A DNA stretch of 64,000 nucleotides from Minisyncoccota bacterium. Lineage in GTDB: Bacteria > Patescibacteriota > Minisyncoccia > Phycocordibacterales > Phycocordibacteraceae. Made by a program: the position numbers and the translations under genes. Positions 6,476-54,294 of this stretch are shown here, in pieces. Every line of letters begins with the position of its first letter. The first letter of the stretch is position 1. A model generated the notes under the pieces. It had not been told where the DNA came from, searched no databases, and worked only from the letters and a program-made list of their open reading frames with translations. The stretch lies in NCBI GenBank assembly GCA_035531495.1, contig DATKSU010000017.1, positions 2,668 through 66,667 of the forward strand, written 5' to 3'.

Positions 6476-6506
6476 CGATAACGTGTCATACTGACTAAGC
6501 GGCACT

Positions 6507-6836: not shown

Positions 6837-6849
6837 AACGACCCTCCCT

Positions 6850-7754: not shown

Positions 7755-8042
7755 ATGTCCGTCCTCAACGCCTTTCTCTCGAAGGTCACTGTTCAGATCA
7801 TCAATCCGCTCATCCTGCTCCTGGCCGCCGGCGCGTTCGTCGCCTTCTTGTGGGGAGCGTTTGAGTTCATCCGCAACGGCGGCGACGAGAAGAAGCGTGC
7901 GGATGGGCAGCGAGCAATCCTGTGGGGCATCGTCGGGCTCGTCATTATCTTCGGCGCGTACGGTATCATCAATGTCGCCATGAACACCTTCAACCTCCAG
8001 CCGAACGGGCAGTCGACCATCCAACAGGTCGTCTCCCCATAA
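7755..8042 (+). CDS. TrbC/VirB2-type pilin-like small membrane protein, paralog 6
   Basis: 95 aa. Motif …AGAFVAFLWGAFEFIRNGGDEKK…AILWGIVGLVIIFGAYGIINV. Confidence 0.5.
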   Translation: MSVLNAFLSKVTVQIINPLILLLAAGAFVAFLWGAFEFIRNGGDEKKRADGQRAILWGIVGLVIIFGAYGIINVAMNTFNLQPNGQSTIQQVVSP

Positions 8043-8935: not shown

Positions 8936-10224
8936 ACGGAACCTCCATCAGATTGGCTTGCGGCTGGTTTATTCGGAGCGACCGGCAGCGTAGGCACGAG
9001 CGGCTGGGGTGCTCCCCAGACGATCGTATTGCCGGGACCTCTTGACGACTCTTGCATCGCGTCATACTGCGCGAGTCGGATACCGACTTCACCGACTGCA
9101 CTGATGACGCTGAGTCTCCTCTCGAGGGATTTGGCTTCGGCTTCTCCCGTCATCTCAATGACATCGGCTTTCGCTTTCCCCGTGGTACGCGTGGCAATCG
9201 CTTCCTGCTCGGCAACATAGGCTTTCGTCGCCGCTTCCTGGTTCCTATCTTTCGCGTCGCCAGAAAGATCAATCTTTTGGAGATCGACGGTGCGGATTTC
9301 CACGCCATATCGTCCGAGAAGGCCGAACGGAGGCTTGGTATCCACATCGTCCGGGAGTCGGCTGCTAAGCGCGATAATCGGCGCCGAGTACTCGGTCAGA
9401 TCAACCGTGTCCGTACTTCCTCCCGCCGCCGCCCTCTTGGTCGACCGGATGATATCATTGTACTTCTGAGAGCCGATGAAGGCCCTCGAATTACGGTTGA
9501 TAGCAGCCGTGACGCGTACCATCCAATCCTCGCCGCTGAAAAGCGCGCGGTAGGGATTGCGGACGGCAACCGTCGCGAACGTCAAGACGGTTACTTGCAG
9601 GTTCTCCGACGTTTCTGCGTCCTGGGTGACGAAGACGTAGACAAAGTCCGAGACGTAGACGAGGTCAGTCGCTTCCGCGCGTGGGAAGACCGACTCCGCG
9701 CCGTTCTCGTCCGTGCGCGTCTCGTTCCACACGAACTGATAGACGTGGACTTTGACAGACCACGGCCAGCCAATCCAATAGATGCCGAGATATTTGAGCA
9801 GCCACGACCGCCTGTCGTAGTACGAGTCCTCCATCATCTCGCCCGTGAAGCCGTTCGTATTGCCCGGTCCGTGGAATAAGACTTCCCAATTCGCCTTATC
9901 GGGCTTGAACCCTGGCCCCATCGGGTCGTTCAGATGGAACCCCTCGAATGACATGAGGATCCGCTCGAACGAGTTCCCGCGCAGGATGATCTTCGCGGTA
10001 CCTTCCTTCACGGTGGTGAAGAGGATGGCTTCTTTCGCGAGCGACTTGATGAAGAAGAACAGGATGATACTGGCGAACACCGCGCCGTCAATCGTGATGA
10101 ACAGCCATTTCAGGATGGTTGCCACCAACGGATTGGACAGGCTCAGTATCATGATTATCGTGACAGACAAGATCACGACGACTGGTGCCGACAGATTGCG
10201 GCGCAATTTAGACAGCGGTGCCAT
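8932..10224 (-). CDS. SPFH/band-7 (flotillin-like) membrane protein
   Basis: N-terminal TM helix, an SPFH core, and a flotillin-like Ala/Glu-rich coiled-coil tail (…EAATKAYVAEQEAIATRTTGKAKADVIEMTGEAEAKSL…). Confidence 0.75.
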   Translation of the reverse strand: MAPLSKLRRNLSAPVVVILSVTIIMILSLSNPLVATILKWLFITIDGAVFASIILFFFIKSLAKEAILFTTVKEGTAKIILRGNSFERILMSFEGFHLNDPMGPGFKPDKANWEVLFHGPGNTNGFTGEMMEDSYYDRRSWLLKYLGIYWIGWPWSVKVHVYQFVWNETRTDENGAESVFPRAEATDLVYVSDFVYVFVTQDAETSENLQVTVLTFATVAVRNPYRALFSGEDWMVRVTAAINRNSRAFIGSQKYNDIIRSTKRAAAGGSTDTVDLTEYSAPIIALSSRLPDDVDTKPPFGLLGRYGVEIRTVDLQKIDLSGDAKDRNQEAATKAYVAEQEAIATRTTGKAKADVIEMTGEAEAKSLERRLSVISAVGEVGIRLAQYDAMQESSRGPGNTIVWGAPQPLVPTLPVAPNKPAASQSDGGSV

Positions 10225-10305
10225 TCGTGCCTCCTAGATTGGTGAGAGTAGTTGAAATGAACAAATCGCCGGAACAAAATTAACTAATAAATGCTGAAAT
10301 GTCAA

Positions 10306-10389
10306 GGTGCTGGGGGAGAGATTCGAACTCTCATGCCTTGCGGCGCTAGCTCCTAAGGCTAGTGCGTCTGCCAGTTTCGCCACCCCAGC
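10306..10389 (-). tRNA. tRNA-Leu (anticodon TAG)
   Basis: Manually folded: acceptor GCTGGGG/CCCCAGC, anticodon arm CTAGC-CTTAGGA-GCTAG, long variable arm, T-arm GAGAG-TTCGAAT-CTCTC. Confidence 0.8.
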
Positions 10390-10550
10390 GCATCCGTCTA
10401 ACCGAACCACTCTGGCGGTCACAGATAATTCAATCGTCGTCACGATTGAATTTCTGCGACCCCGCCTCGCGGTGCTCGCCGCTGCTCGCACAACGCTCCG
10501 GCTCGCACCGAAGCATAACACCTGCCGCAGGGCAGGTGCTAAGTCTTCAG

Positions 10551-10623
10551 TGCGCCCACCAGGACTCGAACCTGGGACCTTCTCCTTAAGAGGGAGCAGC
10601 TCTACCAACTGAGCTATGGGCGC
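10551..10623 (-). tRNA. tRNA-Lys (anticodon CTT)
   Basis: Manually folded: acceptor GCGCCCA/TGGGCGC, D-arm TAGCTCAGTTGGTAGAGC, anticodon loop CTCTTAA, T-arm CCAGG-TTCGAGT-CCTGG. Confidence 0.75.
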
Positions 10624-10659
10624 AAGGTATGCAAACTGTACCCGAAGTGCGCCGCAGTT

Positions 10660-11505
10660 TCAATGCGCGTGTGCATAGGCGGTGAAGCGCTTCATGAGGT
10701 CGCGCGTGACGGGGCCCGGCTTTCCGCCGCCAATAATCCGTCCGTCGACGGCGACGACGGGCACGATGTCCTTGAAGGAAGAGGTGATGAAGGCCTCGTC
10801 CGCGCCGAAGAGCGCCGGCAGGAGGACCGCCGCCTCATGCGTAGGGTAGGCCTTTTCCGCGAGCGCGAGCGTGATGGCGCGCGTGACGCCTTTGAGCACG
10901 TCAGCACCCGGCGTGTATACCGCGCCGTCCTTCACGACGAAGACGTTGCTCGTCGCGCACTCGAGCACGCGGCCGTTCTTCGTGAAGAGGATCTCGAGGG
11001 CGCCCGCTTCCTTGCGCTTCGGCTGGAGCATGACGGCCGTGATGTAATGAGTGGTCTTCGACTCGGGCATGAAGCGCTCATATTCGTGCGTGATGAGCGA
11101 GGCGCCATGCTCGTAGAGTTCGGGCGCAAGCGGCGCCGTCGGCTCCGCGGTAGCGAAGAGCGTCTCGCGGCCCGGGACGTGCTCGAGGCCTCCTTTCGCC
11201 GCGCCGCCCGTGAGCACGAGCCGGATGCTCGCGCGCCTGCCCGGCGAATTGCGCGCGATGAGCGTCCGCAACGCGTGACGCACTTCGCCCTGCGAGCGAG
11301 GAAGAGCGAGTCCGAGCGCGTCGGCGGATTTCTCGAAGCGTTCCCAGTGGTCGTCGAAGTGGAACGGCTCGCCCGAGAAGGCGGTGATGCCTTGGTAGAT
11401 GCCGAAGCCGCGCAAGAGGCCGAGGTCCGTGATGCCGATTTTCGCCTCCGCGAGCGGCATGATCGAACCGTTCAGATAGCAGAGGAGCTCCATGCGTCGG
11501 AGCAT
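10660..11505 (-). CDS. class IV aminotransferase (branched-chain / D-amino-acid aminotransferase or aminodeoxychorismate lyase family)
   Basis: 281 aa with the fold-type IV PLP-enzyme pattern. The exact subfamily cannot be resolved by eye. Confidence 0.7.
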   Translation of the reverse strand: MLRRMELLCYLNGSIMPLAEAKIGITDLGLLRGFGIYQGITAFSGEPFHFDDHWERFEKSADALGLALPRSQGEVRHALRTLIARNSPGRRASIRLVLTGGAAKGGLEHVPGRETLFATAEPTAPLAPELYEHGASLITHEYERFMPESKTTHYITAVMLQPKRKEAGALEILFTKNGRVLECATSNVFVVKDGAVYTPGADVLKGVTRAITLALAEKAYPTHEAAVLLPALFGADEAFITSSFKDIVPVVAVDGRIIGGGKPGPVTRDLMKRFTAYAHAH

Positions 11506-11521
11506 TGTAGCAGACGCTCTC

Positions 11522-11556
11522 CGCGCAAAAGAAAAGCCCGCGGGGAAGCGGGCTTA
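11522..11556 (-). terminator. terminator hairpin
   Basis: Hairpin agcccgc-gggga-a-gcgggct. On the minus strand it is followed by a T-run, downstream of the 11554-11883 gene. Confidence 0.45.
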
Positions 11557-11883
11557 GAAGAGCATTTCGAACGGCAGCTCGAATTCCCGGCCGGCAAGGG
11601 CCGTGAGGAACGGCCCGGAATATGCGCGTATGCCGTCGTCGCTCGCGACGAGCTGCATGAACAGCTCCATCGAGACCGGGACGACGTACTGGCCTTGCCT
11701 GTACCACGGGATCGAGCGGCCGAAGGGAATCGGGACTGGCAGCGCGTTCACGTATCGGATGATGAACCTTCGCCGCTGGCTATGTCCGAGATGCAGAGAA
11801 CAACCGTCTGGAACCGTCACGATTTGTGCGCCGCGGCGCGCGCCGCGGCGCCAGAGCTGGAGTACGGCAACGTAGCTTTGCAT
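11554..11883 (-). CDS. hypothetical protein (about 109 aa)
   Basis: ATG at 11883 (MQSYVAVLQLWRR…). A terminator hairpin lies directly downstream. No recognised domain. Confidence 0.35.
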   Translation of the reverse strand: MQSYVAVLQLWRRGARRGAQIVTVPDGCSLHLGHSQRRRFIIRYVNALPVPIPFGRSIPWYRQGQYVVPVSMELFMQLVASDDGIRAYSGPFLTALAGREFELPFEMLF

Positions 11884-11979
11884 GGTGCACCTCATCTTGA
11901 ACGTCCTGGCCGAACCGCTGATCCTGCGGCGAATCTTCAAGCACCGCGCCGCGGAAGTCAAATGCGGCCGGCATCGTGG

Positions 11980-12068
11980 TACCGAGGGTGAGACTCGAAC
12001 TCACATGAAGGTTTTTAGGCCCTCTCCGGGTTTTAAGCCCGGTGCGTCTGCCATTCCGCCACCTCGGC
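11980..12068 (-). tRNA. tRNA-Leu (anticodon TAA)
   Basis: Manually folded: anticodon arm CCGGG-CTTAAAA-CCCGG, long variable arm, T-arm GTGAG-TTCGAGT-CTCAC. Confidence 0.8.
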
Positions 12069-12108
12069 GTCTTTTGAAGATACCATTCCTCTGCTACTCT
12101 CGGAGGAC

Positions 12109-12180
12109 GGCCCGATGGTGAAGTGGTAACACAGCGGTCTGCAAAACCGCGATGCGCGGGTTCGATTCCCGCTCGGGCCT
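12109..12180 (+). tRNA. tRNA-Cys (anticodon GCA)
   Basis: Acceptor GGCCCGA/TCGGGCC, anticodon arm GCGGT-CTGCAAA-ACCGC, T-loop GGTTCGATTCC. Confidence 0.8.
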
Positions 12181-12524
12181 CAGGAAAGCGCGTCTAACCG
12201 CCGGCGATTCTTCTCGCCGCGGTCGAGCGCGAAGTCGACGCGCGGCAAAGGCGAGAGGCGCGTATGCGCCTTGAGGTGATCCGAGAATGCTTCGCGCTGC
12301 CGTTCGAGGAAGGAGAGCGCCGCGCGTTCCTTAGCGTCGGGGAAGACCGTGACGAAGACGGTGACTCGCTCGCCGTGCGCGGACGGCTCCGCGCGCGTGA
12401 CGGTGATGAGGGACCCCGCGCCGGCTTCCCGCAAGATGAAGCCGGCGGCTTCGTGCGCGATGAGGGTCGCCGCGCGTTCGGCGTGATGATTGCCGCCTCC
12501 CGGCGCGTGTCCGGCGGCGCTCAT
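12180..12524 (-). CDS. rbfA: ribosome-binding factor A-like protein
   Basis: 114 aa, immediately downstream of infB with a 4-nt overlap. KH-like core …SLITVTRAEPSAHGERVTVFVTVF…. The N-terminus may be shorter than the ORF. Confidence 0.6.
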   Translation of the reverse strand: MSAAGHAPGGGNHHAERAATLIAHEAAGFILREAGAGSLITVTRAEPSAHGERVTVFVTVFPDAKERAALSFLERQREAFSDHLKAHTRLSPLPRVDFALDRGEKNRRRLDALS

Positions 12525-13987
12525 GACGTCACGACGGCAAAGGCGATGAGCACGTCGCTCGGCGCCGCATCCGCGCGCGCCTCGATCTCGGTGCCGAAGG
12601 TTCCTTCCGTGCGGATCTCCTTCACGTCGGCGCGCGCCTGCTGCAGGTTCGCCACCGTGCCGCGCCCAATCTCGTTCTCGCCCCGCATGATTTTCACCTT
12701 ATTTCCGACGGCGAAGGCGCCGCGGTCGAGCCGGGCGCCGATGACCTGCTTCTTTGCGCTCGACGAGAACGTCTTGATGACGGTCGCGCGCCCGAGCTCC
12801 TCTTCGACGGTGACGGACGGGGCGCGCTCGGCGAGGAGCTCGGCGACTTTCTGCGACAGCTCATAGATGATGGAGAACGATTCGATGCGGATGCCGTCAC
12901 GCAGCGCGAGTTCGCGCGCGATCGGGTCCGTCGCGGCGTTGAAGGCGATGATGACGCCGCCGGTCGCTGCCGCGGTCTTCACGTCGCCCTCGGAGACGTT
13001 TCCGACGCCCGTGGCAACGATGCGCAGCGCCGCGCGTTCGTGCGTGACTTTCTCGAGCTCGTGCAGGATGGCGTCGACGGAACCCGCGACGTCCGCCTTG
13101 ATGACGAGCGGCAGTTCGGCGCCGCCGTCCGCCGCCGCGATTGCGGTCGGGCGCGCCGCCGCCGCCGCATATTCGGCCGCGAGCGCTTCCGCCTCCTTCT
13201 TCGCCTTCACGACGGTGAAGATCGTTCCTGCCGCGGGGAGGGAACTGAAGCCGGAGATGCGCGCGGGTTCGGACGGGCCGGCCGCCTCGATGCGCTCGCC
13301 GCGGAAGTCCTCGATGTAGCGTACGGGCGCATATGCGTCGCCGGCGACGACGAAGCGGGATTTTCCGAGCGTACCGTCTTTCACGATGAGCGTGGCGGAT
13401 GCGCCACGCTTCGGGTCCTGCATGGACTCGAGCACGAAGCCCGTCGCCGCCGCATCCGTGTCGGCGGTGAGCTCCGCGAGGTCGGCAGCGAGGAGCACGA
13501 GATCAAGGAGTTCCGGCACGCCCTCGCCCGTCTTCGAGGAGACAAGTGCGTAGGCGATATCGCCGCCGAGCCCTTCGAGATAAATGCCGTGCTCGAGGAG
13601 CGAATTCTTCGCGCGTTCGACGTCCGCGTTGTTCTTGTCAATCTTCGTGATAGCGACGAGGTAGGGAATGCCAGCGTCCGTGATGGCCGCGAGCGCGTCC
13701 TCGGTCTGCGGCATGACGCCTTCGTCGGCCGCGACGACGAGGATGGCGATGTCAGCCGCCGCCGCGCCGCGCGTGCGCAGCGCCTTGAAGGCCTCGTGCC
13801 CGGGCGTGTCGAGGAAGGTCACGCGCCGCCCGTTATGTTCGGCAATGTACGCGGAGACGTGCTGCGTGATGCCACCAGCTTCGTTCGCGACGCTGTTCGT
13901 TTTCCGGATGTAGTCGAGGAGCGTCGACTTGCCATGATCTATGTGGCCCATCACCGCGATGACGGGCGGTCGTGCGACCCGTGCCAT
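12521..13987 (-). CDS. infB: translation initiation factor IF-2 (short form lacking an N-terminal extension)
   Basis: G-domain motifs [14 protein letters not shown] and NKID are present, followed by beta-barrel domains. Confidence 0.93.
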
Positions 13988-14044
13988 AATGCCTCATATC
14001 ATCACAAAAAATGCGCGCGCGCAATCAGTGTAGAATCACGTCAT

Positions 14045-15172
14045 ATGCTGCGAAGACGGAGGACGTATCTCGATTGGGCGGCGGGCGCGAGCGCGAACCC
14101 GTCGTCGCCGCACGCGGAAGGGCGGCGGGCGCGGGCGCGGCTCGAGGCCGCGCGCGAGGCGATCGCGCGGCTCGTCGAGGCGAAGCCGGACGACGTCATC
14201 TTCACCGGCGGCGCGACGGAGGCGAACGCGCTCGCAATCGTCGGTCATGCGCAGGCGCGTAAGCGCGCGGGTGCGCGCGCCACCCATATGCTGTACCTGC
14301 CGAGCGCGCACGCGTCGGTCGTGGAGAATATGGCCGCGCTCGCCGCAAGGGGCATCGCGGTCGAGCCGCTCGCCATCCGGGATGCGGCGGTCGACATCGG
14401 GGCGCTCGCGCGCCAGCTGCGCCCCGAGACCGCGCTCGTCTCGATGGACGCGGTCTGCGGCGAAACGGGTGTGGTGTGGAATACCCTCGATGTGCGGCAC
14501 GCGCTCGATGCGGCGCGTCCGGGCGGTCCGCGTATCCTGCTCCATGTCGACGCGAGCCAGGCGCCCTTGACCGAGAAGATGACGCGTGCACATTTCGGCG
14601 CCGACCTCCTCACGCTCGACGCGTCGAAGGTCAGCCTCGTCCGCGGCATCGGGGCGCTCGTCGCGCATCGCACGATCGCGCTTGCACCCTTGTACGCGGG
14701 CGGCGGGCAGGAGCGGGGACTCTGCCCCGGGAGCGAGGCGCCGGAACTCGCGCTGCGCTTCGCCGAGGGTCTCGCCGCCGCCGCGCAGGGTCGCGAGCGC
14801 TTCCGCGCCCGCGCCACGCGCGACCGCGCGGCATTCCTCGCCGCCATCACGGCAGCCGTTCCGGGCGTATCTATCCAGGAGGGGGCGCAGCAGGCGCCGC
14901 ATATCGTGAACCTATCACTACCGGGCCGCGACACCGATTACCTCGTCGCGTTGTTAGACGAGGCCGGCTATGCCGTCTCTACGAAGAGCGCGTGCGAGAC
15001 CGATTCCGAGGAGGGATCGCGCGCCGTCTTCGCCCTCACGGGTGATGCGGTGCGCGCCCGGTCGACCTTGCGCGTCTCCTTCGGCCCGGCGACGAGCTCC
15101 CGCGCCCTCGCTGCCTTCGCCCGCGCCCTCATCCGCGCCGTCGCATTTATTGACACTCATGCCCGCAGGTAG
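14045..15172 (+). CDS. class V aminotransferase / cysteine desulfurase-like protein
   Basis: ATG at 14045 (MLRRRRTYLDWAAG…). The track ORF starting at 13040 is a GC-driven extension running antisense to infB. Fold-type I features include …VIFTGGATEANALAIVGH… and HVDASQA. TAGAAT lies 8 nt upstream. Confidence 0.7.
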   Translation: MLRRRRTYLDWAAGASANPSSPHAEGRRARARLEAAREAIARLVEAKPDDVIFTGGATEANALAIVGHAQARKRAGARATHMLYLPSAHASVVENMAALAARGIAVEPLAIRDAAVDIGALARQLRPETALVSMDAVCGETGVVWNTLDVRHALDAARPGGPRILLHVDASQAPLTEKMTRAHFGADLLTLDASKVSLVRGIGALVAHRTIALAPLYAGGGQERGLCPGSEAPELALRFAEGLAAAAQGRERFRARATRDRAAFLAAITAAVPGVSIQEGAQQAPHIVNLSLPGRDTDYLVALLDEAGYAVSTKSACETDSEEGSRAVFALTGDAVRARSTLRVSFGPATSSRALAAFARALIRAVAFIDTHARR

Positions 15173-29019: not shown

Positions 29020-29855
29020 GCGCCGAGCTCCTCTCGGATGAGGCCACGTACTTCTAACGCGGCGAGCGCGGTGAGGGTTTCGCCGGGCGCGCCGTTCGCG
29101 CGCAAGAGCTCGTCACGGGTGCGCGGTTCCTCAAGGAGGGCCCACACGGCGGCCTCGGCGCCTTCGAGCGCGGGCGCTGGACGCTCGGCGGGCGTCTCGC
29201 GCGGCGGGATGCCGAGCGCTTCGAGCACGTGGACGGGCTCCGCGGCCAGCGCCGCGCCGAGCCGGATGAAGAGGTGCGGACCGACCCCGTGCGGGTCGGT
29301 GATGCGATGCGGCACACACAGGAGTTCGCGGTTGTATTCGCCCGCGAGCCGCGCGGTGATGAGCGTGCCCGACTTCCGCCCGGCTTCGATGATGAGCACG
29401 GCATCGGCGAGACCGACCATGATGCGGTTGCGCGACGGGAATTCTTTCAACCACGGCTTGTGGGACGGCTCTTTCTCGGAGAGGAGCGCGCCGCCCTTCG
29501 CGAGTATGTCGTACGCGAGGCCGAGATTCGTTCGCGGATAGATGACGCTCTCGTCGAGCCCGGAACCGGGGATGGCGATCGTGTGGAGCCCGGCGGCGAG
29601 CGCCGCCCTATGCGCACAAGCGTCGGTGCCGAGCGCGAGGCCCGAGATGATGGAGACGGGATAGCCGGCGAGCCCCATGATGAGCCCTTCGCACGCGGCG
29701 CGGCCATATGGGGAGAGCGCGCGGCTCCCGACGACGACAAGAAGCTTCGTCCCGGGCGGCGGGAGCATTCCGGCGAGCCACAGGCGCTCGGGCGGCTGCG
29801 GTATCTCGAGGAGCGGAGCGGGCCACTCTCCGCGCGGAAGCTCGCGAATCTTCAT
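29004..29855 (-). CDS. dprA: DNA-processing protein DprA (Rossmann-fold core)
   Basis: 283 aa with the DprA/Smf core (…VVVGSRALSPYG…IISGLALGTDACAH…). Confidence 0.8.
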   Translation of the reverse strand: MKIRELPRGEWPAPLLEIPQPPERLWLAGMLPPPGTKLLVVVGSRALSPYGRAACEGLIMGLAGYPVSIISGLALGTDACAHRAALAAGLHTIAIPGSGLDESVIYPRTNLGLAYDILAKGGALLSEKEPSHKPWLKEFPSRNRIMVGLADAVLIIEAGRKSGTLITARLAGEYNRELLCVPHRITDPHGVGPHLFIRLGAALAAEPVHVLEALGIPPRETPAERPAPALEGAEAAVWALLEEPRTRDELLRANGAPGETLTALAALEVRGLIREELGAWRRL

Positions 29856-29863
29856 GCGTTGAG

Positions 29864-29869
29864 TATACT
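29864..29869 (+). promoter_or_regulatory. -10 hexamer TATACT 7 nt upstream of the serS ATG (leaderless-type promoter)
   Basis: gagTATACTaggtggcATG. The same hexamer-to-ATG spacing recurs at many genes in this window. Confidence 0.4.
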
Positions 29870-29876
29870 AGGTGGC

Positions 29877-31148
29877 ATGCTCGACATACGGTTCATCCGC
29901 GAGAACGCCGATCTCGTGAAGGCTGGCGCTGCCAAGAAGCGCATTGATGCCGACATCGACCGCCTGCTCGCCGTCGACGACGATCGCAAGCGGCTCCAGC
30001 AGGAGTATGAGACGAAACGCGCGGAGCAGAATCGCAAAAGCGGCGAGGTGCAGCGAGCGCAAGGCGCCGAACGCGAGAAGCTGCTCGAGGCGATGCGGCA
30101 GCTGAAGCAGGGCATGGCCGAGACGGAGGACGAGCTCAAGAAGGTGATGGAGGAATGGCAGCGGCTCATGCTCGCCGTCCCGAACATCCCCGACATGTCG
30201 GTGCCGGACGGCGAGAGCGATGCAGACAACGTCGAGGTGAAGAAGTGGGGCGAGCCGACTGCGTTCCCGTTCGAGCCGAAAGGCCACGTCGAGCTCATGA
30301 CGGCGCTCGGCATGGCGGACTTCGAGCGCGGCGCCAAAGTCGCCGGCTTCCGCGGCTATTTCCTCAAGGGCGACGGTGTGCTCCTGTCGAACGCGGTCTG
30401 GCAGCTGGCGCTCAAGCACTTCGGCGCGAAAGGGTTCGAGCTTCTCTTCGCACCGTCCTTGGTGCGCCGCGAAGCGTTCCTCGGCACGGGATATCTCCCG
30501 CAGGGCGAAGAAGACCTCTACAAGACGCAGGACGGCGATTTCCTTGCCGGCACCGCGGAGGTCGCGACGATGGGCTACCACATGAACGAGACGATCGACC
30601 TCGCGAACGACCCTATCCGCTTTCTCGGCTTCTCGCCGTGCTTCCGCCGCGAGGCCGGTGCGCACGGCAAGGACGTGCGCGGCCTCATCCGCGTGCACGA
30701 GTTCTATAAATGGGAGCAAGTCGTCCTCTGCAAGGCAGAGCACGACGAATCGGTCCGTCTCCATGAGTGGCTGAACCGCAATACGGAAGAATTCATCGAG
30801 CTCCTAGCGATTCCATATCACACGGTCGCCAATTGCGGCGGCGACCTTGGACTCGGCCAGGTGAAGAAGTACGACGTCGAGCTGTGGGTGCCGGGCGAGA
30901 AGAAATACCGCGAGATAAGCTCCGCGTCTTATTTCCATGATTTCCAGACGCGGCGTCTGAATATCCGGTACCGCGACACGGATGGCGCGCTCAAGTTCGC
31001 GCATTCGCTCAACTCGACTGCCATCCCGACGCCGCGCATCCTCGTCTCCATCATCGAGAATTACCAGCAGGCCGACGGCACGATCAAGGTACCGGACGCG
31101 CTCGTGTCGTATGTCGGCAAACCTATTATCGGCAAGGCGGGGAAGTGA
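29877..31148 (+). CDS. serS: seryl-tRNA synthetase
   Basis: ATG at 29877 (MLDIRFIREN…); the track ORF starts upstream at 29229. N-terminal coiled-coil arm plus class II core motifs. Confidence 0.93.
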   Translation: MLDIRFIRENADLVKAGAAKKRIDADIDRLLAVDDDRKRLQQEYETKRAEQNRKSGEVQRAQGAEREKLLEAMRQLKQGMAETEDELKKVMEEWQRLMLAVPNIPDMSVPDGESDADNVEVKKWGEPTAFPFEPKGHVELMTALGMADFERGAKVAGFRGYFLKGDGVLLSNAVWQLALKHFGAKGFELLFAPSLVRREAFLGTGYLPQGEEDLYKTQDGDFLAGTAEVATMGYHMNETIDLANDPIRFLGFSPCFRREAGAHGKDVRGLIRVHEFYKWEQVVLCKAEHDESVRLHEWLNRNTEEFIELLAIPYHTVANCGGDLGLGQVKKYDVELWVPGEKKYREISSASYFHDFQTRRLNIRYRDTDGALKFAHSLNSTAIPTPRILVSIIENYQQADGTIKVPDALVSYVGKPIIGKAGK

Positions 31149-48830: not shown

Positions 48831-48836
48831 TATACT
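48831..48836 (+). promoter_or_regulatory. -10 hexamer TATACT 8 nt upstream of the second ATG (48845)
   Basis: cagTATACTagATGgaaATGg. The first ATG is only 2 nt from the hexamer, so a leaderless start at 48845 is more likely. Confidence 0.35.
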
Positions 48837-48844
48837 AGATGGAA

Positions 48845-51643
48845 ATGGAATCGGCGCCGACATTGTCCACGCCTGAGGCGGAGCTCGCGTACCTGCGCGA
48901 ACAGGTCGCGCGCAAGGAGGCCGAACTCTCCGCCGCCGGCCGCGCGGACGCGGCTGCCGAGCGCCCGCGGCTCGTCGCCGAGGAGCTGCGCGCGCACCAA
49001 GCGGCGCCAGCCGAGATACTCGCGTCCGCGTACCGCATGAGCGCCACCGAGGCCGCGAGCGCCGCCGAGCGCATTCTCGCCGAACTCGACGTCGGCGACG
49101 AGGCGGACGCGATACGGCAGATACAGCAGGTGCTCGAGGAGAAGGGCATCAAGAACGCGCTCGCCGTGCTCGAGAAGCTCCAGAATCCGCGCATCGGCGA
49201 CGACCTGCACCGCTATCTCGTGCGCTACATCGCAGCCGGATTGCCAATGGCCGCCGGCGGCGAGAAGCTGCCGCAGTTCGCCGCGCTCCGCATGACGCTC
49301 TACGAGATCGCCTTGCCGGAACCGAAGGGCGCGGACGGCGGCGGGCGCGAGAAGTCGCTCAAGGAGCTCATCTCTGCGATGGAGCAGTTCTACGCGGGAC
49401 TCCTCTCGGTCGCCGAAGCGGCGCCCGGCGAGCCCGGCTACTACGCGCTCGAGCTTGCCGTTCCGGCGGAGAGCCCGGAGCTCCAGTTCTACGCGGCGAT
49501 TCCGAACGGCAAACGCAACCTCTTCGAGAAGCAGCTCCTCGCGATGTTTCCGGACGCGCATCTCGTCCCGCAGCCGCTCGATTACAACGTCTTCGCGGCT
49601 GGCGGCGCGTCGCTCGCGTCGGTCGCGCGGCTGGCGGCGAACCCGGCGCTCCCGCTCAAGGATTACGCCGATTTCGATTACGACCCCTTGAACGCCGTCA
49701 CGAACGCCTTCGCGAAGATCGAGCACGTCGGCGAAGGCGCCGCCATCCAGTTCATCATCGAGCCGCGCGGCGAGCGCCACGTCGAGCACTACCGGAAAGT
49801 CCTCCATGCGCTCCAGAAGGGTGAGACGGTCGCGCAGGCGCTCCGGACGCCCGGGACCGTGTTCGGCGAGCTCGCGCGCGACGTCGCGAAGACGTTCTTC
49901 TCGCGGACGCCGGACGAGAAAGGGAAGGAGAAAGCGAAGGAAGACGCAGCGCGTCGCGTCGAGGAGAACAAGCCGACCGCCGAACAGGTGGAGCGCAAGA
50001 TTTCCGCGCCCATCGTCGGTACGACCATCCGCCTCGTGACGTCGTCGAAAGACGCGACGAAGGCGGCGCAGGTGCTCGGCGAGCTTGAGGCGGCATTCAA
50101 CCAGTTCGCGAACACGCGGGGCAACCGGCTCGAGTTCGCGCGCATGACGCCCGGGCAAAAGGGCGCCGCGCGCGTCTTCGAGGACTTCTCGTTCCGCCTG
50201 CCGGAGGCCACCGGGCTGCCCTTATCCTTGCGCGAGCTCACGGCGCTCTACCACTTCCCGCCGTCGGGCGTCGCATCGTCGCCGCACCTGAAGCAGGCGC
50301 GCTTCACGCACGCGCCCGCGTCCCTCTCGCTCTCGAAGGAGGGCGCGCTCCTCGGGACGAATAGTTATCGCGGCCACGACACGGCGGTGTACCTTGACCC
50401 AGAGGACCGGCTGCGGCACCTCTACGTCGTCGGTCAGACGGGTACCGGCAAGACAGGTCTCATGAAGAACCTCATCATCCAGGACATCCGCCGCGGCGAA
50501 GGCTGCTGCTTCATCGATCCGCACGGTAATGACATCTTCGACATCCTCGCGGCCGTGCCGCCTGAGCGCTATGAGGACGTCATTTACTTCGATCCGGCTG
50601 ACCTCTCACGCCCATTCGGCCTCAATTTCCTCGAATACGAGCATTCGCGCCCCGAGCAGAAGACGTTCATCGTGAATGAGCTCCTCGCCATCTTCCGCCG
50701 CCTGTATGGTGACGTGCCGGAGAGCATGGGGCCAGCTTTCGAGCAATACTTCAGGAACGCGACCCTGCTCGTCATGGAAGATCCCTCATCGGGCTCGACC
50801 ATCCTCGATATCGCGCGTGTGCTCTCGAATGCGGAGTTCCGTGCGCTGAAGCTCGCGAAAAGCATGAACCCCATCGTGAACCAGTTCTGGACGGAGATAG
50901 CGACGAAGGCCGGCGGGGAAGCGGCGCTTGAGAACATTGTCCCGTACATCACGAACAAGTTCGACGACTTCACGGCGAACGACTTCATCCGACCCATCGT
51001 CGGGCAGCAGGAATCGTCGTTCAAGTTCCGCGACGTCATGGACAACCGCAAGATCCTCCTCGTGAACCTTTCGAAAGGGCGGCTCGGCGAGCGCAACGCG
51101 AACCTGCTCGGCCTCGTCGTCGTCGGCAAGCTCTTCATGGCCGCGCTCGCGCGCGCCGACAATCCGCGCGCGGCATATCCGCCGTTCTACCTCTACATCG
51201 ACGAATTCCAGAACGTCACGACCGATTCCGTCCCCGGCATCCTCTCCGAGGCGCGCAAATACAAGCTCGCGCTTTCGATGGCGCACCAGTTCCTCGCGCA
51301 GCTCGAGGAGAAGACGCGCGACGCCGTCTTCGGCAACGTCGGCAACATGACGATCTTCCGCGTGGGCGAGGAAGACGCCGAATTCTTCGCCAAGCAGTTC
51401 GCGCCAGTCTTCGGCGCGCCGGATTTCGTGAGCATCGAGAACAGGAGCGCCTATGTGAAGCTGCTCGCGCACGGCGTGCCGCAGAAGCCGTTCGATATCC
51501 GCACGCCGGACCTGCTGGCGGGCAATCCGGCGCAGGTTGACGAGCTTATCCAGCTTTCCGCGCTCACTTACGGCCGCGACCGTGCTACTGTGGAGACGAC
51601 GATCCGCGAACGCTACCTGGGCCGCGCGGCAGCTGCTATATGA
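48845..51643 (+). CDS. FtsK/HerA-superfamily P-loop ATPase, TraD/VirD4 (T4SS coupling protein)-like with TraD_C-like tail; no TM anchor
   Basis: Walker A VVGQTGTGKTG followed by CFIDPHGND, Walker B YLYIDEFQN, and C-terminal …ARKYKLALSMAHQFLAQL…. The N-terminal 480 aa are soluble and unassigned. Confidence 0.65.
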   Translation: MESAPTLSTPEAELAYLREQVARKEAELSAAGRADAAAERPRLVAEELRAHQAAPAEILASAYRMSATEAASAAERILAELDVGDEADAIRQIQQVLEEKGIKNALAVLEKLQNPRIGDDLHRYLVRYIAAGLPMAAGGEKLPQFAALRMTLYEIALPEPKGADGGGREKSLKELISAMEQFYAGLLSVAEAAPGEPGYYALELAVPAESPELQFYAAIPNGKRNLFEKQLLAMFPDAHLVPQPLDYNVFAAGGASLASVARLAANPALPLKDYADFDYDPLNAVTNAFAKIEHVGEGAAIQFIIEPRGERHVEHYRKVLHALQKGETVAQALRTPGTVFGELARDVAKTFFSRTPDEKGKEKAKEDAARRVEENKPTAEQVERKISAPIVGTTIRLVTSSKDATKAAQVLGELEAAFNQFANTRGNRLEFARMTPGQKGAARVFEDFSFRLPEATGLPLSLRELTALYHFPPSGVASSPHLKQARFTHAPASLSLSKEGALLGTNSYRGHDTAVYLDPEDRLRHLYVVGQTGTGKTGLMKNLIIQDIRRGEGCCFIDPHGNDIFDILAAVPPERYEDVIYFDPADLSRPFGLNFLEYEHSRPEQKTFIVNELLAIFRRLYGDVPESMGPAFEQYFRNATLLVMEDPSSGSTILDIARVLSNAEFRALKLAKSMNPIVNQFWTEIATKAGGEAALENIVPYITNKFDDFTANDFIRPIVGQQESSFKFRDVMDNRKILLVNLSKGRLGERNANLLGLVVVGKLFMAALARADNPRAAYPPFYLYIDEFQNVTTDSVPGILSEARKYKLALSMAHQFLAQLEEKTRDAVFGNVGNMTIFRVGEEDAEFFAKQFAPVFGAPDFVSIENRSAYVKLLAHGVPQKPFDIRTPDLLAGNPAQVDELIQLSALTYGRDRATVETTIRERYLGRAAAAI

Positions 51644-51647
51644 ACAT

Positions 51648-53966
51648 ATGGACATGAACGAAGGATCAGCGAATCTCGACAAGAAAGGTGGTCAGCCGCC
51701 TTTGAATCCCGTGCTGTCTCCCGAAATGGCGGAGAAACTGCGCGCGAATCGGAGCGCTGCAGAGTCGGAAACTTCGGACGAGGCGGCGGGCCGCATCATC
51801 GACCGGATGATGGTAGAAATCGACAAACAGGCGGCGGGGCCTGACGAAGTGTCGGCGATTGCGGCGCAGCGCGTCAAGGCTCCGCAATACGGATTTCCGA
51901 AGAATGTCGGCATGGAGCGCGCCATGAAGCAGCTTGAGACGGAAGCCGCAGACCAGCCGCCCGTGCCTGGCAATAGCGGAATGTCGCATGAGGTTCCCCC
52001 GCCGCCTGCCGCTGCGCCGGCGCCCGAAGAAGACGCGCACGCATTCGGCCAGCGACTCGAGCAAGAGATCGGCGATTTCCGCGACCGCCGGGACGACGGC
52101 ATCCCGACGCTTACCGACGTCGTAACCGCGGAGAGCGAGAACGGCGTACCGGAAGAGGACGACGGCATCCCGACGCTTACCGACGTCGTAACTCCGGGAA
52201 GCGGCGCAGCCGAAGCGCGTGGAGCGGCTACTCTGCACGGCGAGTACGCCGACCCGAGCTTATCGCCGGACGATGTGCGCAATATGCGCGAGGAGCTTGA
52301 TCGCATGGCGGGAGCAGGGCCGGCGGTCGTACCGGGGGAACCGCAGACCGCGGCGGAATCAGCTGCGGTCGAGGAGCGGACGCCGGCGGAAGAGCGCCGC
52401 CGACTGCACGAACTCGTCGGGAAGCTCACGGGCGGCGCGAAAGAGAAGCTCGACTGGTGGAAGAGCTCGGAGGAACGACTCATCAATCGCTCTGCGGAGC
52501 TTGACGCCCAGCTGGCCGAGATGGGGAAGGTAGAGAAAGGGTTCCGCTGGCTCGGCGAGCGGTACAACAAGCTCGGCTGGAAGACGAAGCTCGCCGTCGG
52601 CGTCGCGCTCGGCATCGGCTACGGCGGCGCGCTCGCCGCCGGTGCGTCGCTCCCGATCCTGCTTGCGTGCATCGGCGCCATCGGCGCCCAGCGCACCGCA
52701 GCGCTCTCGACCCAGTATCTGAAATACGAGAAGGAGTTCACGGCGCGCGGCAGCTCCTGGGCGCGCGGCCGCGCGCTCTTGAACGCCGTCGGCTACTCCG
52801 CGCTCCTGACGGGTGGCTCGATGCTCGTTGCGAAGGGCGTCGAAGACGTTCTCGGACATTATCTCGGGCACGAGGGACATGCTCCCGGAGGCCCGCCGAC
52901 CGGCGGGCGCATCGAGGGAGCGCCGGCTGCGCCACCGGCGCATACGCTCGAGCCCGCAGCGCTCGCGCACCCGGCGCACGAGACGGTGGCGCCGATGCAC
53001 GAAGCCGCCACGGCCGCGGCGAAGCCGGCAGCATCGTCATTCGAGGTCGCTGCGTCGGGGGGGCACGGCACGGAATTCATGATGAAGCAGATGTGGGAAT
53101 CGATGCGGCCGGAGCATCTCGACCCGAAAGAGTACGCGAGCCTGAAAGGGACCGATTTCTACAGGCTGCTCACGGCTACGCCGAAGAATATCGACAGCGT
53201 CGTGCGCGATATCGCGAACAGTCCGAACCACGCATTCTACGATCCGGCGCACCACGCGAGCATCCTCGTCGGACCGCACGACACGATTTCGTTCGACGCG
53301 CACGGGAACATGCTGCTCCATACCGACCACGGCACATTCGCGCACGCGCCGCTCGGCGCGCACATGACGCCGGACGCTCATCCGGAAGCGCCGCTCGCGC
53401 ACGAGACGCTGCCGCCGACCGAGCACGCTGCGACCGTCGACGTCACGCACGGCGCAGCGCCGCAGCACGCGGTGCCCGCCGAGGGGCAGCCATTCCCGCC
53501 CGTTGAGCACGCGCAGAACGTCGTCCACAGCGGTGACGGCAGCGTCGTGCATGACGGCTCCGGGAACCCAGTCCACAGCGGCGGCCATGAGGCCGCCATC
53601 GGGCCACCGCCGCCCGTTCCGGCCGAACATGCGCAAGCGTTCGTGAACCGCTTCGGTGTCAGCATCGACCCGACGCAGGCGCATGTCTTTCAGGATTCGA
53701 ACGGCGCAGTGCTCTCCTACGGCAACGATTATGCCGCACGACTTGCCGCGGCCGAGGAGTTCGTCCGTGCGCACCACGATGCGACCGTCTGGATGCAGGC
53801 AGAGAAGCCGGTCTTCCACGGGGGCGCATGGCATCCGTGGGTATTCGCCGTGAAGTACGCAGGATTCTTCCGCGGCGTGCAGCCGGTCTTGCCGCCGGAC
53901 GGCATGCCGACTCCGGACCACATCGGCTACATCGACCCGACCGCATTCTCTAAGGAGTTGAACTGA
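51648..53966 (+). CDS. large hypothetical protein (772 aa): acidic/Pro-rich N-half, central TM segment, His-rich C-half
   Basis: ATG 4 nt after the ATPase stop. Exact 35-nt internal tandem repeat encoding DDGIPTLTDVVT twice. TM helix LAVGVALGIGYGGALAAGASLPILLACIGAIGA. C-half has many His in H-x-x-P/H-A-x contexts. Confidence 0.45.
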   Translation: MDMNEGSANLDKKGGQPPLNPVLSPEMAEKLRANRSAAESETSDEAAGRIIDRMMVEIDKQAAGPDEVSAIAAQRVKAPQYGFPKNVGMERAMKQLETEAADQPPVPGNSGMSHEVPPPPAAAPAPEEDAHAFGQRLEQEIGDFRDRRDDGIPTLTDVVTAESENGVPEEDDGIPTLTDVVTPGSGAAEARGAATLHGEYADPSLSPDDVRNMREELDRMAGAGPAVVPGEPQTAAESAAVEERTPAEERRRLHELVGKLTGGAKEKLDWWKSSEERLINRSAELDAQLAEMGKVEKGFRWLGERYNKLGWKTKLAVGVALGIGYGGALAAGASLPILLACIGAIGAQRTAALSTQYLKYEKEFTARGSSWARGRALLNAVGYSALLTGGSMLVAKGVEDVLGHYLGHEGHAPGGPPTGGRIEGAPAAPPAHTLEPAALAHPAHETVAPMHEAATAAAKPAASSFEVAASGGHGTEFMMKQMWESMRPEHLDPKEYASLKGTDFYRLLTATPKNIDSVVRDIANSPNHAFYDPAHHASILVGPHDTISFDAHGNMLLHTDHGTFAHAPLGAHMTPDAHPEAPLAHETLPPTEHAATVDVTHGAAPQHAVPAEGQPFPPVEHAQNVVHSGDGSVVHDGSGNPVHSGGHEAAIGPPPPVPAEHAQAFVNRFGVSIDPTQAHVFQDSNGAVLSYGNDYAARLAAAEEFVRAHHDATVWMQAEKPVFHGGAWHPWVFAVKYAGFFRGVQPVLPPDGMPTPDHIGYIDPTAFSKELN

Positions 53967-53997
53967 ATCGCTTTACCCGCATGCTACTATTCCCTGT

Positions 53998-54294
53998 ATG
54001 CAAGATGAATTGACCGCTGCGATCGCGAACGACCTCGGGATCGCTGGCTTGCCGAATGACGAGCAGCAGAAGCTCATCACCCAGTTCGGCGAAGTGGCGC
54101 TCAAGGCCGCGACCGTCGCCGTGCTCGAGAAAGTCCCTGATGGAAAACGTTCCGAATTCGAGAAGCTTGCGCAGGCAGGGGACGCGGATGCTATCAAGGT
54201 CTTCCTCGACCGCGAGGTGCCGGGACATGAGGAACTCGCCAGACAAGCGGTTGCGGACGAAGTCAAGCGTTTCAAGGACTTCCAGGCGCCGTAG
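53998..54294 (+). CDS. hypothetical protein (98 aa)
   Basis: TACTAT 7 nt upstream of the ATG. Helical, acidic. Confidence 0.4.
   Translation: MQDELTAAIANDLGIAGLPNDEQQKLITQFGEVALKAATVAVLEKVPDGKRSEFEKLAQAGDADAIKVFLDREVPGHEELARQAVADEVKRFKDFQAP

Follow-up and report, generated by a model that had tools for sequence, protein, structure and literature searches.

A three-gene operon of Patescibacteria encodes an ATPase with a VirB4-like N-terminal domain and a VirD4-like motor, a variable membrane protein and a DUF5663 protein

Introduction

What is the role of a T4SS-related motor ATPase that is encoded next to a membrane protein gene, when no relaxase, virB4 or virB6 occurs in the surrounding 64 kb? 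This question is raised by a locus in the stretch of 64,000 nt analysed here (the window). Much of bacterial diversity falls within the Patescibacteria (CPR), whose way of life is attachment to other cells, and little is known of how material passes between them and their hosts. An earlier note, made from the letters of the window, had singled out the ATPase and the gene behind it as a two-gene unit resembling neither a canonical T4CP-relaxase module nor a known HerA-nuclease pair, and searches of Pfam, NCBIfam and PADLOC led us to the same view of what the pair is not.

Orphan T4CP homologues in Patescibacteria have already been noted in the literature. According to Quinonero-Coronel et al. 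2025 (PMC12102498), T4CP homologues were present in 2,918 of 3,035 Patescibacteria genomes (about 96%), only 148 of 5,713 homologues were located near virB4, and the 2,474 virB4 genes in CPR were fewer than the genomes with T4CP homologues. A separate canonical VirB4 family in CPR genomes was also described, and the authors raised exaptation of the T4CP homologues as a possibility (PMC12102498). The ATPase family considered here, which carries the domain DUF8128, probably belongs among these orphan homologues, judging by their description. The DUF8128 domain, the N-terminal fusion and the neighbouring partner and DUF5663 genes are not described in the available portion of that paper, and we found no literature on DUF8128, on DUF5663 or on Patescibacteria with DUF87. 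The present analysis adds that the DUF8128 ATPase family combines a docking domain like that of VirB4 with a motor like that of VirD4, and that companion genes are conserved along with it: those for a membrane protein that evolves fast, for DUF5663 and for a small helical protein, which in some cases is fused to the motor.

Results

Gene organisation and genomic context

The region 48839-54294 is an operon of three genes, for the ATPase, a variable membrane protein (the partner) and a DUF5663 protein (Table 1); it is inherited vertically and is confined to Patescibacteria (CPR). The gene order is DedA, ATPase, partner, DUF5663, FKBP, TGT, UvrB and UvrA, and the neighbours are housekeeping and syntenic genes (within 10 kb on each side, and the larger genes across the 64-kb window). 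The locus is chromosomal (Paceibacterota, Kaiserbacteria-like), stands in housekeeping synteny and is not on a mobile element. Neither the window nor any of 90 related loci showed VirB3, VirB6 or VirB8 genes in their Pfam annotation. The pilin array that had been placed some 40 kb away is real; T4SS-type (VirB2-like) pilins are encoded at 5661-7281, about 41.5 kb from the ATPase locus.

Table 1. Coordinates of the features of the operon in the window
Feature	Position	Strand	Basis or remark
Candidate -10-like hexamer TATACT	48831..48836	+	2-8 nt 5' of both ATGs (48839, 48845); read from sequence
ATPase gene	48839..51643	+	934 aa from 48839; 932 aa from 48845 (= public protein P0001)
N-terminal helical module, ATPase aa 1-144	48839..49270	+	Motif EKGIKNALAVLEKLQNPRIGDDLHRYLV; HMM matches to small CPR proteins
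DUF8128 domain (PF26449), ATPase aa 145-480	49271..50278	+	VirB4 N-terminal-domain-like fold
T4CP-type P-loop motor, ATPase aa ~500-934	50336..51643	+	Profiles, motifs
Walker A GQTGTGKT	50432-50455	+	In ATPase motor
Walker B YIDEFQN	51194-51214	+	In ATPase motor
TraG-D_C region	ATPase aa 782-861	+	Pfam
Partner gene	51648..53966	+	772 aa; public P0121 starts two codons later, 770 aa
Direct duplication, 66-nt-spaced	52091..52203	+	Copies 52091-52137 and 52157-52203; 47 nt, 91% nt identity; encodes DDGIPTLTDVVT twice
Conserved core, partner aa 243-365	52374..52742	+	Alignment; hmmalign conservation, 59 homologs
Gly/Ala-rich TM hairpin, partner aa 315-347	52590-52688	+	Hydrophobic stretch; Pro336 conserved
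DUF5663 gene	53998..54294	+	98 aa, acidic, helical; Pfam DUF5663 E 2e-4

The public annotation places the ATPase start at the second Met, and neither possible start gives the 933 aa reported earlier. The candidate -10-like hexamer lies within the 24-nt spacer between the ATPase and the divergent DedA gene (start 48820, minus strand), a placement suggesting a possible leaderless ATPase transcript. The ATPase stop codon (TGA) is followed by 4 nt (ACAT) and then by the partner ATG; both this spacing and the length of the partner were borne out from the ORFs as the earlier note had given them, and the codon-position GC (0.72/0.49/0.79) supports coding. A TACTAT is found just 5' of the DUF5663 ATG, at 53984-53989.

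Conservation of the operon

The gene pair was evaluated in 77 species-level loci, each with at least 1.5 kb downstream of the ATPase. The earlier note had named a lack of joint conservation of the two genes as grounds for refutation, and a large same-strand ORF was found right after the ATPase stop in 70 of the 77 loci, a recurrence that puts the adjacency far beyond chance. In 57 loci this ORF was recognised by jackhmmer as a partner homolog, always as the next gene and typically with a gap of 1-14 nt or an overlap, which suggests translational coupling; in another 13 loci the partner slot was taken by an ORF that measured 400 aa or more. A DUF5663 homolog directly followed the partner in 58 of the 77 loci. 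The pair therefore stood, while its description as a unit of only two genes did not, since the third gene had been missed. Among close relatives, the DUF5663 proteins share about 65-70% identity. A borderline PDB match of DUF5663 to the helical bundle of protein A constructs (E 1e-4) was judged compositional.

The ATPase occurred with neither partner nor DUF5663 in seven loci (L001, L012, L036, L061, L062, L067 and L083), and the partner was absent nearby in four of six distant ATPase loci. These observations indicate that the motor does not strictly depend on an adjacent partner. In Moranbacteria-type loci the same four components are encoded in the order partner-like protein, DUF5663, small protein and ATPase. 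Long C-terminal extensions of distant ATPase homologs (P0183, P0185 and others) were considered as Rosetta-stone fusions of ATPase and partner. This was rejected, since the extensions are Pro/Ala-rich tails in which inspection showed neither a clear TM segment nor the YNKL core.

More than 895 homologs of the ATPase were found, the best 120 at 73-77% identity, and orthologs in this range of identity occur in over 100 assemblies of Paceibacterota/Kaiserbacteria. A relative is present in at least 592 GTDB species representatives, and there are 20,560 clusters at 50% identity (E<=1e-3). The gene set of the operon is near-universal in CPR and vertically inherited, and the window locus is an ordinary member of a widespread ATPase family, so that its value lies in a reading at the level of the family.

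Motor domain of the ATPase

Profile searches confirmed the T4CP/HerA-superfamily signatures that had been read from the ATPase core. In Pfam, TraG-D_C (28 bits, cut-off 22), TrwB_AAD_bind (20.9 bits, cut-off 20.5) and DUF87 (24.5 bits, cut-off 23.2) all exceeded their cut-offs on the window ATPase, and TrwB_AAD_bind and T4SS-DNA_transf aligned over about 300 aa in relatives, above cut-off at 29-49 bits. When PDB sequences were searched with the family profile, the closest solved sequences were TrwB (1e-7) and DotL (2.4e-6), and no VirB4 chain was retrieved. Neither CagE_TrbE_VirB nor AAA_10 matched the window ATPase at Pfam E<=0.1. The NCBIfam T4CP models fell short of their cut-offs, SXT_TraD being the best (52.9 bits vs 366) and the CD1115 VirD4-like model reaching 34.4 bits vs 250. 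A confident classification as a standard chromosomal FtsK/SpoIIIE would have counted against the earlier note; the FtsK_SpoIIIE profile remained below its cut-off (12.6 bits vs 24, E 0.096), and no multi-TM N-terminus was found. PADLOC HerA models gave matches limited to the P-loop (2e-4 and 2.7e-3), mad8 gave a weak but broader match (3.8e-12, aa 526-853), and the DUF87/HerA likeness of the P-loop covered aa 512-565.

The motifs GQTGTGKT (aa 532-539), CFIDPHG.D (aa 557-565), Y.DEF (aa 786-790), ARKYKL (aa 805-810) and AHQF (aa 815-818) were unchanged in 30 orthologs. A helical insertion, a candidate for the all-alpha domain that T4CPs carry within the NBD, was predicted at aa ~600-735 in a low-confidence model (pLDDT <50), a region that the TrwB_AAD_bind alignments in relatives span. 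This full-length AF2 model, built from a shallow alignment (30 orthologs, ~75% identity), had a pLDDT of 52.7, and its motor was unusable.

N-terminal part of the ATPase

The N-terminal 480 aa, previously described as being of unknown function, were resolved into two parts. A usable AF2 model was obtained for aa 1-505 with an alignment of 67 diverse homologs, and its DUF8128 portion (pLDDT >90) retrieved TrwK/VirB4 as all of the top 13 Foldseek matches. A VirB4-type N-terminal domain fold is thus present ahead of the ATPase. A profile search of PDB sequences with the isolated N-terminal domain gave nothing meaningful and no VirB4 chain. Precomputed matches place PF26449 N-terminal to a DUF87/TraG-D_C ATPase in P0001, in at least 120 orthologs and in at least 120 distant CPR relatives. 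Since aa 145-480 adopt a VirB4-like fold, the architecture is VirB4-like with a VirD4-type motor, and the ATPase is a member of the VirB4/VirD4 branch of the FtsK-HerA superfamily with a hybrid build.

The remaining module was modelled by AF2 with low confidence (pLDDT 45-85). It is homologous to small proteins of 133-167 aa from other CPR lineages, where their genes lie 40-130 nt upstream of TM-anchored ATPase homologs. An HMM of the N-terminal ~150 aa of the ATPase matched L086_139 (E 9e-8), L087_167 (5e-7) and L090_133 (2e-3), with a clear alignment of the motif. Judging by these matches, aa 1-145 are a fused copy of the small protein that is encoded separately upstream elsewhere in CPR.

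The lack of an N-terminal TM anchor, claimed in the earlier note, held in a hydropathy scan; with 19-aa Kyte-Doolittle windows the first 750 aa were free of hydrophobic segments, and the sole window with a mean above 1.4 (aa 753-775) lies within the ATPase core. An N-terminal TM helix was present in all six distant homologs examined, as a single helix and not as the usual T4CP pair. Kaiser-type ATPases lack such a helix, the median of their maximum 19-aa hydropathy in the first 200 aa being 0.78. One Kaiser-type outlier reached 2.76, probably through an over-extended ORF call.

The partner membrane protein

The partner had no match in Pfam, NCBIfam, PADLOC or PDB sequences, and no nuclease, Sir2 or other effector domain was recognised in it by Pfam, NCBIfam and PADLOC. 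A signal peptide or known secretion signal was not seen. Across loci the partner shows 17-36% identity, its N-terminal region cannot be aligned and its size varies from 450 to 1340 aa, as against 59-76% identity for the ATPase; on these alignments the partner is evolving very fast. Conservation is restricted to a juxtamembrane helix, the Gly/Ala-rich TM hairpin and two C-terminal blocks. The core is made up of TP.E..L..L, the juxtamembrane helix, GE.YNKL..K, the TM hairpin and QR..G, and the sequences on either side of the hairpin are K+R-rich. The central hydrophobic stretch of the earlier note was recovered, but it looks like a two-helix hairpin, possibly with a third helix, and not like one TM segment of a single-pass protein. 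Because the hydrophobicity of the third helix is low (mean KD 0.45), either side of the membrane is conceivable for the C-terminal half; an acidic segment follows this helix.

Several compositional features of the partner had been described, and these were found again. The N-half, described as acidic and Pro-rich, is rich in Ala, Glu, Gly, Pro and Asp, and the C-half, described as His-rich, contains 9.4% His. The duplicated dodecapeptide (aa 149-160 and 171-182) is exact and stems from a duplication of the DNA. As a family trait, His-richness was rejected, homologs ranging from 0.6 to 6.6%. The repeat motif IPTLTDV occurred in 0 of 58 other partner homologs and DG.GN.V in 5 of 58, and neither IPTLTDV nor DG.GNPV was accepted as a conserved linear motif of the family. 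Among the sequences compared, only this genome shows the His-richness and the duplicated dodecapeptide.

Discussion

Proposed role of the operon

In canonical T4SSs, the VirB4-type N-terminal domain docks the motor onto VirB3 and onto the VirB8 tails at the inner membrane. We consider, with moderate confidence, that the ATPase of the operon is best read as a motor descended from T4SSs and passed on vertically, for which the partner membrane protein would be the docking site, the function being a proposal. In most CPR lineages the ATPase is anchored by its one N-terminal TM helix, with the small helical protein encoded just upstream. In the Kaiserbacteria-like clade the small protein, now fused to the motor, has taken the place of this helix and leaves the motor soluble. 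This motor, presumably a hexamer, may be brought to the membrane by the co-translated downstream partner, through the only strongly conserved cytoplasmic element of the latter, the juxtamembrane helix with GE.YNKL beside the hairpin. ATP would then drive the translocation of a macromolecule, or an assembly process, at the envelope, and DUF5663 could be a small subunit that works as an adaptor or in the manner of a chaperone. The whole set might act as a remotely encoded coupling ATPase of the CPR T4SS or might have been exapted to an independent envelope function. The ATPase, partner, DUF5663 and small protein thus make up a concrete candidate complex that can be tested, and the motor bears on the divergence of the two T4SS ATPase families.

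Alternative explanations

The ATPase could instead be a plain T4SS coupling protein (VirD4) encoded away from virB4, which recruits substrates and hands them to a VirB4/VirB6 channel, the downstream gene being a substrate or accessory factor. The matches to T4CP families, TrwB and DotL as nearest solved sequences and the pilins in the same window agree with this, as does the report that CPR T4SS clusters lack a recognisable coupling protein nearby (PMC10633639; PMC12102498). Nevertheless, we regard it as unlikely. A VirB4-type N-terminal domain is not known from T4CPs, the best NCBIfam T4CP score is far below its cut-off, and the window lacks the relaxase, virB4 and virB6 genes. Moreover, the CPR genomes with T4CP homologues outnumber the virB4 genes, and in the one strain tested a Southlakia t4cp homologue was reported to be non-essential for epibiotic growth, whereas the T4SS was essential (PMC12102498); that this homologue belongs to the present family is assumed.

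It is also conceivable, but somewhat more doubtful, that the partner is the cargo and not the dock, that is, a diversifying surface or host-contact protein that the ATPase inserts, exports or extracts with DUF5663 as a chaperone. The extreme contrast in rate between the partner and the two other proteins and the spread of partner sizes fit such a role, and the acidic segment after the third helix would be expected if it lay outside. In a passenger, however, the putatively cytoplasmic juxtamembrane and hairpin core would hardly be the most conserved part, a pattern of structural contact, and the lack of a visible signal peptide or known secretion signal likewise speaks against cargo.

Less probable again is adjacency without shared function, with a variable envelope protein filling a syntenic slot behind a housekeeping ATPase. 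The seven loci that keep the ATPase without partner and DUF5663, and the four distant loci without a nearby partner, would suit this idea; the short gaps or overlaps typical of 57 loci do not, and inherited synteny by itself would hardly account for the same components in a different order in Moranbacteria-type loci.

It is highly improbable that the ATPase is of the HerA type and forms an anti-phage pair with an effector, or that it pumps DNA at division as a chromosomal FtsK/SpoIIIE-like protein, in spite of the P-loop likeness, the weak PADLOC matches and nearby DNA-repair/replication genes such as those for UvrABC. The partner lacks an effector domain or PADLOC match, and the locus differs from defence islands in being core, syntenic and near-universal. 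The FtsK_SpoIIIE score is sub-threshold with no multi-TM N-terminus, and in the search with the family profile TrwB and DotL score far above HerA. FtsK is reportedly mentioned in papers on the Saccharibacteria strain TM7x; a replacement of FtsK by the present ATPase was considered and found to be without support, given the sub-threshold Pfam score.

Comparison with known systems

Returning to the motor that is proposed to dock on the partner, its N-terminal domain fold is shared with VirB4 (TrwK of plasmid R388; PDB 7O42, 7O41, 8RTB and 8RTD), but it has no VirB4 signature at the sequence level, and its gene is not clustered with virB3, virB6 and virB8. With the T4CPs (TrwB/VirD4/TraD and DotL) it shares a motor domain of the T4CP type, as detected by Pfam, and the long disordered C-terminal tails of some ATPase relatives may recall the adaptor-binding tails of TraD and DotL. 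Unlike T4CPs, it lacks the two-helix N-terminal membrane domain and carries the VirB4-like domain in addition; it also has no adjacent relaxase or T4SS, is chromosomal and vertically inherited, and scores far below the NCBIfam T4CP cut-offs. To our knowledge, no T4CP has a VirB4-type N-terminal domain.

A wider proposal, which is speculative and unlikely, would unite the DUF8128 ATPase, the membrane protein with GE.YNKL, DUF5663 and the small helical protein in a previously unrecognised, near-universal envelope machine of CPR. This machine would descend in minimal form from the T4SS inner-membrane complex, or be its sister, and its motor, with VirB4 and VirD4 features, would power the passage of DNA, protein or lipid between the bacterium and the host cell. 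If this were true, the motor would stand midway in evolution between the two signature T4SS ATPases, or would merge their roles, and the fast-evolving partner would track host surfaces.

Outside CPR, the closest relatives are stand-alone T4CP-like ATPases such as those of Sulfitobacter (WP_259956255) and Bradyrhizobium (WP_247904195), which are 27-35% identical over the motor domain and likewise lie outside T4SS operons, but lack DUF8128, the partner and DUF5663; DUF8128 was not detected in the Bradyrhizobium protein, the nearest plasmid homolog with an N-terminal extension. Since these closest non-CPR motor relatives are orphans without T4SS genes, the assumption of a link to a T4SS is weakened. 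They are about 400 aa long where measured (395 and 708 aa) and are encoded mostly on plasmids typed as non-mobilizable and on a few proviral contigs.

The ATPase gene and its chromosomal setting

Both adjacent ORFs described in the earlier note were found in the window (table below), and codon-position GC supports their coding status. The large ATPase ORF is real, but its length is 934 or 932 aa depending on the start, not 933 aa; the claimed 4-nt gap was confirmed, with ACAT between the ATPase stop codon TGA and the ATG of the membrane-protein gene (the partner). The quoted ATPase motifs were present and invariant in 30 orthologs (GQTGTGKT 532-539, CFIDPHG.D 557-565, Y.DEF 786-790, and ARKYKL/AHQF 805-818), and the N-terminus had no hydrophobic segment, in agreement with the proposed lack of a TM anchor.

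Features of the window and their positions
Feature	Positions	Strand	Remarks
ATPase ORF	48839-51643	+	934 aa; public annotation P0001, from second Met (48845), 932 aa
Partner ORF	51648-53966	+	772 aa; public annotation P0121, 770 aa
DUF5663 (window copy)	53998-54294
Duplication in partner	52091-52203		66-nt spacing
Pilin array ORFs	5661-6215, 6507-6836, 6796-7281; possibly 6212-6475, 7755-8042		Pfam T4SS_pilin, TrbC/VirB2
-10-like hexamer TATACT	48831-48836
-10-like hexamer TACTAT	53984-53989
Class-V aminotransferase ORF	13040-15172		~350 N-terminal residues without assignment
SerRS ORF	29229-31148		~215 surplus N-terminal residues

A Candidatus Paceibacterota MAG encodes a protein with 100% identity to the ATPase, and >100 proteins of Kaiserbacteria/Paceibacterota assemblies share 73-77% identity with it. 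The window, which carries GyrA, ClpB, RelA/SpoT, TopA, SerRS, DnaX, TGT, and UvrA/B/C genes, is ordinary chromosome, and the local order of DedA (- strand), ATPase, partner, DUF5663, FKBP, TGT, UvrB, and UvrA was alike in related genomes. No relaxase, virB4, or virB6 was found within the 64 kb. T4SS-type (VirB2/TrbC-like) pilin genes at 5661-7281, which come after the genes for GyrA and a solute-binding protein, lie 41.5 kb from the ATPase locus, close to the 40 kb estimated earlier, and match the sequence-divergent VirB2-like pilin arrays reported for Patescibacteria T4SS.

Domain architecture of the ATPase

Pfam cut-offs were passed by TraG-D_C, DUF87, and TrwB_AAD_bind, and in distant members TrwB_AAD_bind and T4SS-DNA_transf covered ~300 residues from Walker A to past Walker B. 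The closest solved sequences by family profile were TrwB (1e-7) and DotL (2.4e-6), with HerA much weaker and VirB4 absent. These sequence profiles mark the C-terminal half as a motor of the T4CP type. We also considered that the whole protein is a plain, remotely encoded T4CP; full-length curated T4CP models missed it by a wide margin.

The 480-aa N-terminal region, previously regarded as of unknown function, carries the precomputed Pfam domain DUF8128 (aa 145-480). The full-length AF2 model was poor; the prediction for aa 1-505, built from 67 diverse homologs, had a pLDDT of 82.6, mainly >90 at aa 145-480. When the DUF8128-region model was compared with the PDB using Foldseek, the best 13 matches were all TrwK/VirB4 of R388 (E 2.5e-5 to 3e-3). 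The protein thus combines a VirB4 architecture with a VirD4-type motor, a combination not found in the literature searched.

Distant relatives of the ATPase (usually ~800-830 aa, 33-42% identity) aligned from ca. query residue 150, and a single TM helix was present at the start of all six examined. In three of these six loci, a small protein (133-167 aa) was encoded 40-130 nt upstream, and its C-terminal helices (KGVAHAVNVARKLQDYYALDRMHDELV in L086, KGVYYAANIADKLKDPYLLDEFHDTIV in L087, and QGIDKAVAAAKATGDAYLIDEFHDTLI in L090) aligned with ATPase aa ~90-135 (EKGIKNALAVLEKLQNPRIGDDLHRYLV); the E-values against the ATPase N-terminal profile were 9e-8, 5e-7, and 2e-3, respectively. In the window's clade, the small upstream protein has therefore become part of the ATPase and takes the place of its TM helix. 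A second, unrelated small-protein type, with the C-terminus LKIIPGVNKFF..QEAKIKTD, precedes the ATPase in two further lineages, in L085 (7384-7950) and L089 (9425-9994).

Distribution of the family

The family comprised 20,560 clusters (50% identity) at E<=1e-3, spanned CPR (Portnoy-, Kerfeld-, Moran-, Berkel-, and Uhrbacteria among others), and occurred with exact motifs in at least 592 GTDB species. A published survey (PMC12102498) reports T4CP homologues in 2,918/3,035 Patescibacteria genomes, only 148/5,713 homologues near virB4, and a non-essential copy in Southlakia, and states that exaptation 'cannot be ruled out'; judging from shared Pfam and annotation, these homologues probably include the DUF8128 ATPase family. 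One distant CPR genome (L088) carries two DUF8128 ATPase paralogs within 10 kb (1-2588 and 10001-12442), which fits the literature figure of ~two T4CP homologues per genome. Outside CPR, only relatives of the motor domain were found. They are orphans, 395 and 708 aa long in the two examined, and are encoded on plasmids, mostly non-mobilizable, from proteobacteria, actinomycetes, Bacillus, and haloarchaea as well as on 16 viral contigs; DUF8128 was not detected in those tested.

The distant TM-anchored homologs P0183, P0185, P0192, P0195, P0209, P0187, and P0199 have C-terminal tails of 400-1200 aa, Pro/Ala-rich (Gly/Ala-rich in P0183), with the recurring short motifs PPIGAPPVD, L[ST]I[TS]DI.GG, and GDPYA.IDILG and the conserved end PGEV[FY]VDE.GNV[IV]IGE.

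Conservation of the operon and its partner gene

We searched iteratively 80 species-representative loci with the ATPase at 59-76% identity, 77 of which had >=1.5 kb downstream. A recognisable partner homolog, always the next gene on the same strand (typically 1-14 nt from the ATPase stop or with a 4-nt overlap), was present in 57/77; another 13 had an ORF of >=400 aa there that was not a homolog by search, and seven had neither. The pair is conserved, with a large same-strand ORF next to the ATPase in 70/77 loci; coincidental adjacency was the rival considered here. A DUF5663 homolog directly followed the partner in 58 loci, including six of the 13. Moranbacteria-type loci have the same components in another order (partner-like protein of 1119 or 809 aa, DUF5663, small protein, TM-anchored ATPase), which argues for a gene set kept by function rather than synteny alone.

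The partner had no match in Pfam, NCBIfam, PADLOC, or PDB sequences, and a direct search returned, its own public copy apart, only five homologs. Partner identity was 17-36%, with an unalignable N-terminal region, while DUF5663 showed ~65-70% among close relatives; that the partner is cargo was considered. Its conserved parts are a juxtamembrane helix, GE.YNKL..K, a hydrophobic helix pair, QR..G, and two C-terminal blocks. The described central hydrophobic stretch exists (aa 315-347), but a single pass is not indicated: the Gly/Ala-rich helix pair is split by a conserved Pro and comes before QR..G, and its K/R-rich flanks on both sides (5.1 and 7.4 per segment) indicate a hairpin whose two ends are cytoplasmic. 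A weaker third helix (mean KD 0.45) precedes an acidic segment, so that the C-terminal half is possibly extracellular. The reported composition was also found, namely an N-half rich in Ala/Glu/Gly/Pro/Asp, DDGIPTLTDVVT present twice by duplication, and 9.4% His in the C-half. The repeat occurred in 0/58 other homologs, whose His content was 0.6-6.6%; both traits are thus local peculiarities. The observation in the earlier note was confirmed, and its interpretation partly supported.

Possible function

The locus typifies a CPR gene set that is widespread but so far uncharacterised. The ATPase is soluble, with VirB4 architecture, intact catalytic motifs, and a fused accessory module; it is tightly coupled to the downstream membrane protein, after which (31 nt on in the window) comes a helical protein that is small and acidic, and inheritance is vertical under strong constraint. 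In the R388 structure, the VirB4 N-terminal domain binds VirB3 and the VirB8 tails. By analogy, DUF8128 or the N-module may dock onto the partner's conserved cytoplasmic juxtamembrane element, which would bring the motor to the membrane as a hexamer that powers translocation or assembly, with DUF5663 as a putative adaptor. The system may either feed the CPR T4SS/pilus or work independently of it. A HerA-type defence pair or an FtsK substitute is effectively excluded, and the FtsK_SpoIIIE Pfam profile stayed below threshold, contrary to a standard FtsK/SpoIIIE. What is new is that DUF8128 is VirB4-like, that the N-terminal module is a fusion, and that the partner and DUF5663 form a conserved module.

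Other features of the window

The -10-like hexamers lie 2-9 nt before the ATPase and DUF5663 starts, where no Shine-Dalgarno sequence was found, which suggests leaderless transcripts. Only 24 nt separate the divergent DedA and ATPase starts. The GC content is ~64% (range 58-69%), which is high for a Patescibacteria genome, and cumulative GC skew falls monotonically, so that the window holds no origin or terminus. The N-terminal excess of the SerRS and aminotransferase ORFs could reflect over-called starts in high-GC DNA or genuine extensions.
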